Positions 11,621-11,893 of a DNA stretch of 64,000 nucleotides are shown here, in pieces (the stretch's first letter is position 1; each line of letters begins with the position of its first letter). The notes beneath the pieces were generated by a model. That model did not search any database. It saw only the letters and a list, made by a program, of their open reading frames with translations, and had not been told where the DNA came from. The position numbers and the translations under genes are program-made. Source of the stretch: Escherichia coli (GTDB lineage: Bacteria; Pseudomonadota; Gammaproteobacteria; Enterobacterales; Enterobacteriaceae); the NCBI RefSeq assembly GCF_024502345.1, contig NZ_JALDNN010000001.1, one strand, 5' to 3'.

Positions 11621-11893
11621 GTAAAAAAACCCCAAACTATTTTGAGGTAGTTGATTAATATGTGTTTGGAGTTATTAAATTATTCCCTGATAGGCCGGTA
11701 AGGATCCTGAGACGTCGTCCATCCCATCAAGGGCTCAAGGTTCTGCGGGCGTGACGGTTCGAACTCCAGAACCCAGTGTCGGGATCGTGGCGCGGACGTG
11801 GCGGCCGCGCGCGCGGGTCGGTAAATGATGGCGGTTGGCACATCATGAGAACGAAGGTTGGTTCCGGGAATTGTTGGTGCGAATGGCGGGCGG

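Follow-up and report, generated by a model that had tools for sequence, protein, structure and literature searches.

Enterobacterial islands of the tLST/LHR type have as their core shsp20, clpK/clpG, yfdX1/2, hdeD-GI, trx-GI, kefB-GI and degP-GI. Variants in Salmonella Senftenberg pATCC43845, in Klebsiella and in 12 E. coli genomes carry, between mscS and trx-GI, a gene for a protein with two transmembrane helices (hereafter the 2-TM gene), which is followed by an unrelated 202-aa ORF resembling sigma70 region 4 and then by trx-GI and kefB-GI. The GC content of tLST is about 61%, independent of the host (PMC8290217). Complex I provides a further point of comparison through its accessory subunits of the NDUFS4/NUYM type, one of which is the 103-aa chain Q of the Paracoccus denitrificans structure 8QBY (PMC11522691), and so do the small mobilizable Rep3/MobA-MobC plasmids of the Moraxellaceae, namely Psychrobacter pA3H10, a 9.5-kb plasmid-like contig of P. 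immobilis and M. osloensis unnamed4.

Here we compare with these systems a locus in a 64,000-nt stretch of E. coli DNA (contig NZ_JALDNN010000001.1; 'the window', to whose numbering coordinates refer unless another locus is named), centred on a GC-rich block at 11690-11890 to which an earlier note, made from the letters of the sequence, had drawn attention. Sequence comparison indicates that the block is very probably the 5′ fragment of an NDUS4-family gene that came from a stress island by way of a Psychrobacter-type plasmid, and that it is a relic and not an RNA (Table 1).

Results

Among the 201-nt windows of the whole stretch, GC content averaged 0.518 (s.d. 0.058); at 11690-11890 it was 0.617, a value matched by 0.9% of all such windows and by 4 of the 318 non-overlapping ones. 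The step from the preceding 201 nt into the block (+0.348) was equalled at 0.03% of positions, and the 100-nt profile passed from 0.20-0.30 at 11500-11700 to 0.61-0.66 at 11700-11900, with a peak of 0.66 at 11750-11849. The sliding GC analysis thus bore out the compositional shift that the earlier note had reported, and the GC-rich run that it quoted, gcggccgcgcgcgcgggtcgg, is present at approximately 11801-11821. Its placement of the block inside an AT-rich island holds for the left flank (GC 0.279 at 11475-11689, with 0.24-0.28 in the adjoining flank) and not for the right flank, which is the 2-TM gene (GC 0.505). Elsewhere, GC content was 0.589 for the full-length Acinetobacter gene described below, 0.639 for a Polymorphum homologue and 0.596 for the Salmonella tLST segment; the truncated NDUS4-family ORF within the block (0.604), the block as a whole and the full-length gene are all in line with the value of about 61% for tLST. 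The high GC content would follow from the proposed origin of the block in a gene of a high-GC (~0.6) stress-tolerance island, and the contrast at its edge from the abutment of this foreign coding sequence on AT-rich plasmid intergenic DNA.

Table 1 Features of the GC-rich block and its surroundings, in window coordinates
Feature	Position	Strand	Basis and remarks
Tyrosine integrase of the island, N-terminal half (219 of 438 codons)	10806..11462	+	Pfam Arm-DNA-bind_3 and Phage_int_M
KfrA-like DNA-binding protein gene, first 24 codons	11461..11532	-	Aligns to WP_016247066
Perfect 26-nt inverted repeat, 12-nt spacer	11557..11620 (arms 11557-11582 and 11595-11620)		In the AT-rich kfrA-like promoter region
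Terminator-like hairpin, ACCTCAAA-ATAG-TTTGGGGT followed by T7	11622..11648	-	Consensus scan, pattern match; putative function
Truncated NDUS4-family ORF, 76 aa	11680..11910	-	Pfam PF04800 match and alignment to the Acinetobacter gene
Intact 2-TM gene, 234 aa	11894..12598	-	ORF list; partner upstream of the NDUS4-family gene
AGGAG ribosome-binding site	11914..11918	-	Read from the sequence; within the end of the 2-TM gene
Rep3/RepM replication-initiator gene, 3′ part, cut by IS5	12599..13091	-	Rep3_C, 65 bits
IS5	13092..14286	+	CTAA on both sides; right flank is not a continuation of rep

The only long ORF over the block (11680..12084, minus strand), which exists as the earlier note described it, had been judged non-coding and out of frame with the 2-TM gene that it overlaps. 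That judgement stands for the first 58 codons (11911-12084) and falls for the last 76. The former are spurious, because the Pfam match is confined to residues 85-130 of the 134-aa translation and because the homologues begin at the internal ATGATG, in front of which lies a ribosome-binding site; the full 134-aa ORF was rejected as a gene on the same grounds. The latter run from the ATG at 11910 to the stop codon at 11680-11682 (MMQGHNRPPF...WVLEFEPSRPQNLEPLMGWTTSQDPYRPIRE) and match PF04800 (NDUS4, 'NADH dehydrogenase ubiquinone Fe-S protein 4', also named 'ETC complex I subunit conserved region') with 42 bits (E = 1.1e-10), above the whole-protein gathering cut-off of 31.9 bits, and they copy the 5′ end of an annotated gene; a clear protein hit was the observation that the earlier note had itself named as counting against its non-coding reading. 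The match covers profile positions 2-48 of 96, that is, part of the domain, and for this reason we regard the window copy as a fragment of a member gene; the full-length Acinetobacter protein scored 74.3 bits over positions 2-85. None of the NCBIfam models matched the NDUS4-like protein. On the plus strand, the ORFs that cross the block (11776..12018 and 11835..12266) gave no credible Pfam match and were set aside as antisense artefacts.

What remains of the gene, and where it breaks off, could be read from an alignment to Acinetobacter ursingii pAURM-1. Bases 11686-11910 are the first 225 nt of a 579-nt pAURM-1 gene, with zero mismatches in the alignment, after which the two sequences diverge; this CDS encodes the 192-aa WP_004637113.1, annotated as 'NADH dehydrogenase ubiquinone Fe-S protein 4', and lies in the order HdeD, MscS, 2-TM, NDUS4, cation:proton antiporter. 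The 2-TM and NDUS4 genes overlap by 17 nt on pAURM-1 and in the window alike. In the DNA search, the match to Acinetobacter plasmids had its boundaries at 11686 and 12598 (99.5% identity), and in a four-way alignment the window followed pAURM-1 through ...CCTATCAGG (codon 75) before passing into AT-rich DNA (GAATAATTTAATAAC...), where the full-length gene runs on as ATGACATTTCCAGATCGC (...RMTFPDRDSAVDYALKNDWRYIV) and the window sequence is unrelated to it. Codons 1-75 (11686-11910) are therefore homologous to the full-length gene, and the AT-rich DNA joined to them supplies the final codon and the stop.

Because the alignment breaks after codon 75, the block is the 5′ ~39-40% of a protein-coding gene from which 354 nt have been lost. 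Relative to WP_004637113.1, the window copy lacks codons 76-192, comprising the second half of the domain and a C-terminal extension, and is a pseudogene fragment. The lost part includes the strand-helix-strand region that aligns to residues 53-85 of the Paracoccus chain 8qby_Q, and the 76-aa product is without the near-invariant C-terminal motif DPVLEAxxESFPASDPPAW. The suggestion of a relic of a deleted gene was thus essentially right: the 3′ 60% (354 of 579 nt) is missing through deletion or recombination at 11686.

Beyond the new stop codon, the AT-rich DNA holds, in order, the predicted terminator hairpin (32 nt past the stop), the 26-nt inverted repeat, a promoter-like minus-strand site that overlaps this repeat in the consensus scan, and the kfrA-like start. 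The inverted repeat gave only sub-threshold matches to miRNA hairpins in Rfam and is probably the operator of a KfrA-like autoregulator. WP_016247066, to which the kfrA-like codons align, is carried by Enterobacter and Psychrobacter plasmids; the full-length KfrA-like protein matches KfrA_N with 80 bits, and the window copy is cut at its junction with the integrase. In E. cloacae p30860-tetA, the match begins within the inverted-repeat element (11602), adjoining ISSen4.

The junction between the truncated ORF and the AT-rich DNA also occurs in Psychrobacter pA3H10 and in plasmids of Enterobacter roggenkampii and E. asburiae, and a scan of 100,044 species-representative (GTDB) genomes recovered it from two P. 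immobilis contigs and nothing else. This confinement to P. immobilis among the representatives points to a truncation that arose on a small mobilizable plasmid of the Psychrobacter type. Copies of the truncated form are 97-100% identical. The window and the Moraxellaceae plasmids named above have in common the kfrA-like start, the 26-nt inverted repeat, the truncated NDUS4-family ORF, the 2-TM gene and the rep segment, at 97-100% identity and with identical junctions; the window keeps 1.6 kb of such a plasmid, placed inside an E. coli chromosomal island between a broken integrase and IS5. A DNA search of complete RefSeq E. coli genomes recovered this arrangement from none of them. In pA3H10, the GC tract has lost 11 nt between CGCCACG repeats, which shifts the frame, and in the M. 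osloensis plasmid a separate, larger deletion has brought NDUS4 residues 1-27 into frame with KfrA residues 134-318. That fusion, which stems from an independent deletion, the second at this locus, is annotated as a 'hypothetical protein' on the Moraxella osloensis plasmid (L010, 2945-3580).

In the window, as in the Enterobacter plasmids and both P. immobilis contigs, the truncated ORF has kept its start codon, its ribosome-binding site and its frame; in the window AGGAG stands 3 nt before the ATG on an exact count (~8-9 nt on a looser estimate), and a 76-aa stub may be translated. Such a stub might be a functional small protein, translationally coupled to the 2-TM gene and, for example, binding the 2-TM protein, a reading favoured by the preservation of its start signals, its frame and its 17-nt overlap, by its persistence in Enterobacter plasmids, two P. 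immobilis contigs and this chromosome, and by the fact that the columns invariant in the subfamily fall mostly within its N-terminal 75 residues. However, the product ends in mid-domain at profile position 48 of 96 and has lost the DPVLEAxxESFPASDPPAW motif, pA3H10 is frameshifted and M. osloensis keeps only 27 codons, and enterobacterial tLST retain the 2-TM gene in genomes whose islands have no NDUS4 gene at all; near-identical DNA that has spread recently accounts for the persistence of the truncated form. We consider a functional stub improbable, and infer that any 76-aa product, having lost half the domain and the conserved C-terminal motif, would be a non-functional relic.

A different account of the break concerns its mechanism. 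pdif modules, whose boundaries allow the shuffling of modules on Acinetobacter plasmids, are common on Moraxellaceae plasmids, where the DNA in question circulates, and its matches in different plasmids stop at discrete boundaries (11602, 11686, 11831, 11909 and 12598), as they might if the boundary at 11686 were the scar of XerC/D site-specific recombination at a pdif module and not of a random deletion. No 28-nt XerC-6 nt-XerD site was found at 11686, however, even with up to 5 mismatches allowed; the single site in 11300-13200 lies at 11547 with 4 mismatches, and the 13 such matches across the window are at the chance level. The other junctions, moreover, have short microhomologies typical of illegitimate recombination. 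A pdif scar is accordingly very unlikely, and deletion or illegitimate recombination remains our preferred explanation of the break at codon 75.

Full-length homologues of the NDUS4-like protein (~190 aa, 55-60% identity) all match PF04800 and carry alphaproteobacterial names, with Polymorphum, Paracoccus, Roseomonas, Ochrobactrum, Roseibium and Shinella as named hosts. A structured RNA had been the other suggestion for this GC-rich tract lying downstream of a gene; a structured non-coding RNA or cis-regulatory element, for example a structure in the 3′ UTR of the 2-TM mRNA, can be dismissed as extremely unlikely because folding was no better than in dinucleotide shuffles on the two strands (minimum free energy, z = +1.05 and +1.34) and a permissive Rfam scan of 10400-13200 returned no match within 11686-11910 even at E<=1, while in-frame protein conservation (55-60% identity across Alphaproteobacteria) accounts fully for the sequence.

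We inspected nine loci encoding five of the full-length homologues, from alphaproteobacteria and metagenomes (L006, L007-L009 and L015-L019). All nine contain DUF308/HdeD, NDUS4, an NfeD-type protease and a thioredoxin or Na+/H+ exchanger; a ClpG-type disaggregase is present in eight, a rhomboid protein in seven and FtsH in six, and a sigma-like ORF of ~375 aa in most. A called gene of 212-239 aa lies directly upstream of NDUS4 in six of the nine, several of these pairs having overlapping stop and start codons. In the two loci for which this upstream gene was compared (L015 and L019), its product is 57-59% identical to the 2-TM protein of the window, and L015 has the same 17-nt overlap between the two genes, with a GGAGG ribosome-binding site before an ATGATG start. 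The alphaproteobacterial NDUS4 loci and tLST both carry ClpG, FtsH, HdeD/DUF308, Trx and KefB-type genes. The nine tLST-like islands adjoin integrases, conjugation genes or IS6 elements.

Set against enterobacterial tLST themselves, the window carries a scrap of 0.9 kb (the 2-TM gene and the truncated NDUS4-family ORF). Its 2-TM gene is 99.1% identical to the gene between mscS and trx-GI in the tLST/LHR variants, and homology ends exactly at 11909, at the start of the NDUS4-family ORF; those tLST that keep the 2-TM gene have no NDUS4 gene. None of the tLST core genes lies beside the block, whose neighbours are the integrase fragment, the truncated kfrA and rep genes and IS5, and only the accessory 2-TM gene is common to the two.

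The 202-aa ORF of enterobacterial tLST (L004, 3436-4041) has an EE.FEFYQPDD motif in common with the C-terminal part of the ~375-aa ORF that follows clpG in the alphaproteobacterial islands, and both it and the ~375-aa ORF (L006, 4865-6004) are weakly similar to Sigma70_r4_2; the Polymorphum protein of the ~375-aa type also has a sub-threshold match to Ribosomal_S30AE. A 379-aa gene upstream of the Polymorphum NDUS4 gene was considered as a 2-TM homologue and rejected, as no homology was found; it is related instead, by the motif and the weak Sigma70_r4_2 similarity, to the sigma-like ORF of enterobacterial tLST.

In the PDB, the full-length query matched chain 8qby_Q of Paracoccus complex I with 59.8 bits and chains of mitochondrial NDUFS4 with ~40 bits, its residues 29-108 aligning to residues 5-85 of the Paracoccus chain. 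In contrast to NDUFS4/NUYM, the island subfamily is ~190 aa long, has a MRGHNRPPFPPKIPGT extension at its N terminus and the motif ESFPASDPP at its C terminus, and is encoded beside a 2-TM gene on mobile stress islands or plasmids and not with nuo genes: none of the nine loci inspected showed linkage to nuo. Acinetobacter, one of the hosts of the subfamily, has a complex I which, as in E. coli, belongs to the 13-14-subunit type and is not known to contain an NDUFS4 subunit. We tentatively propose that the NDUFS4-like protein could work independently of complex I, in an envelope or oxidative-stress module for which it would be the soluble component beside the 2-TM protein as its partner, a possibility to which we give somewhat less than even weight. 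The 2-TM protein itself matched the NCBIfam model for NuoJ with 17 bits (cut-off 154) over its two transmembrane helices, which is most likely noise from transmembrane-helix composition, though curious given its NDUFS4-like partner.

A literature search gave no link between 'ETC complex I subunit' and clpG, clpK or tLST, and the tLST literature that we checked (including PMC8290217) does not mention NADH, NDUS4-like or 2-TM genes. The recurrence in tLST-like islands of a long-form NDUFS4-like gene next to a 2-TM gene, also on plasmids of hosts such as Acinetobacter, appears to be undescribed in the literature searched.

On the chromosome, the order is ebg, aer, nfeR, nfeF, the island, a tRNA gene with a CAU anticodon (17553-17628), mug, rpoD and dnaG; as the neighbour of mug, the tRNA is taken to be ileX. 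The integrase fragment is 95.7% identical to an intact 1,317-nt integrase at the same nfeF-adjacent site of E. coli 730V1. It is cut at 11462 by plasmid-derived DNA, the join having only 2 nt (TA) in common, and the island is probably immobilised because its integrase is cut in half.

The plasmid-derived scrap spans 11461-13091, to which IS5 is added. Its rep segment, which has 99.8% identity with the M. osloensis plasmid and 100% with a P. immobilis contig, meets the start of the 2-TM gene at a microhomology of 12 nt, TTTCTTAATCAT, at 12587-12598 (equivalent to ATGATTAAGAAA at the start of the gene). In the 9.5-kb P. immobilis contig, TTTCTTAATCAT occurs at two places (L012, 1087-1098 and 5006-5017), which implies a deletion of ~3.9 kb, from MscS through rep, relative to that contig. 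At the other end, the DNA to the right of IS5 is not rep, which suggests that recombination between two IS5 copies delivered the plasmid piece; IS5-mediated cointegration followed by deletions would account for the arrangement of the scrap.

Enterobacter plasmids have ISKpn26 (94% identical) in place of IS5; in E. roggenkampii it is inserted at 12931, and in p30860-tetA it lies where the window has IS5, or close by. The rest of the island (14411-17450) comprises two small ORFs for putative lipoproteins or secreted proteins (14411..14863 and 14860..15267), an IS3 element at ~15749-16920 and fragmentary ORFs that abut the tRNA gene.

Discussion

The comparisons above are consistent with a history in several steps, whose direction and order we infer from shared junctions. 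The 2-TM/NDUS4 pair is cargo of high-GC islands of the tLST/LHR kind, with full-length forms also reaching Acinetobacter plasmids. On a small plasmid of the Psychrobacter type, a deletion or illegitimate recombination would then have fused codon 75 to a kfrA-like region of terminator, operator and promoter, creating a new stop two codons on and removing the C-terminal half of the NDUS4 fold together with the conserved C-terminal motif. The resulting composite of truncated kfrA, truncated NDUS4, 2-TM gene and truncated rep would have moved into Enterobacter plasmids and entered the E. coli chromosome, probably by recombination between IS5 copies on the right and, on the left, by an illegitimate join at which the island's integrase was destroyed. 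Today the block is probably co-transcribed with the 2-TM gene, its transcript predicted to end at the hairpin (11648-11622).

As a finding the fragment is ordinary, since it copies an annotated gene family and plasmid DNA that has already been sequenced. A compositional oddity is explained as a pseudogene fragment, which matters little for the window itself, and the local 'island' proves to be a patchwork of a broken integrase, a scrap of Moraxellaceae plasmid and IS5.

The locus nevertheless documents plasmid DNA of cold-environment Psychrobacter and Acinetobacter reaching Enterobacter plasmids and the E. coli chromosome, together with a piece of tLST-like cargo. The pair of a 2-TM gene and a long-form NDUFS4-like gene, as an uncharacterised recurrent part of alphaproteobacterial tLST-like islands, offers a modest side lead. 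If the NDUFS4-like protein does act apart from complex I, it would represent a second, non-respiratory use of the NDUFS4 fold, and the idea that the pair could have a role in heat or chlorine tolerance is a testable one.
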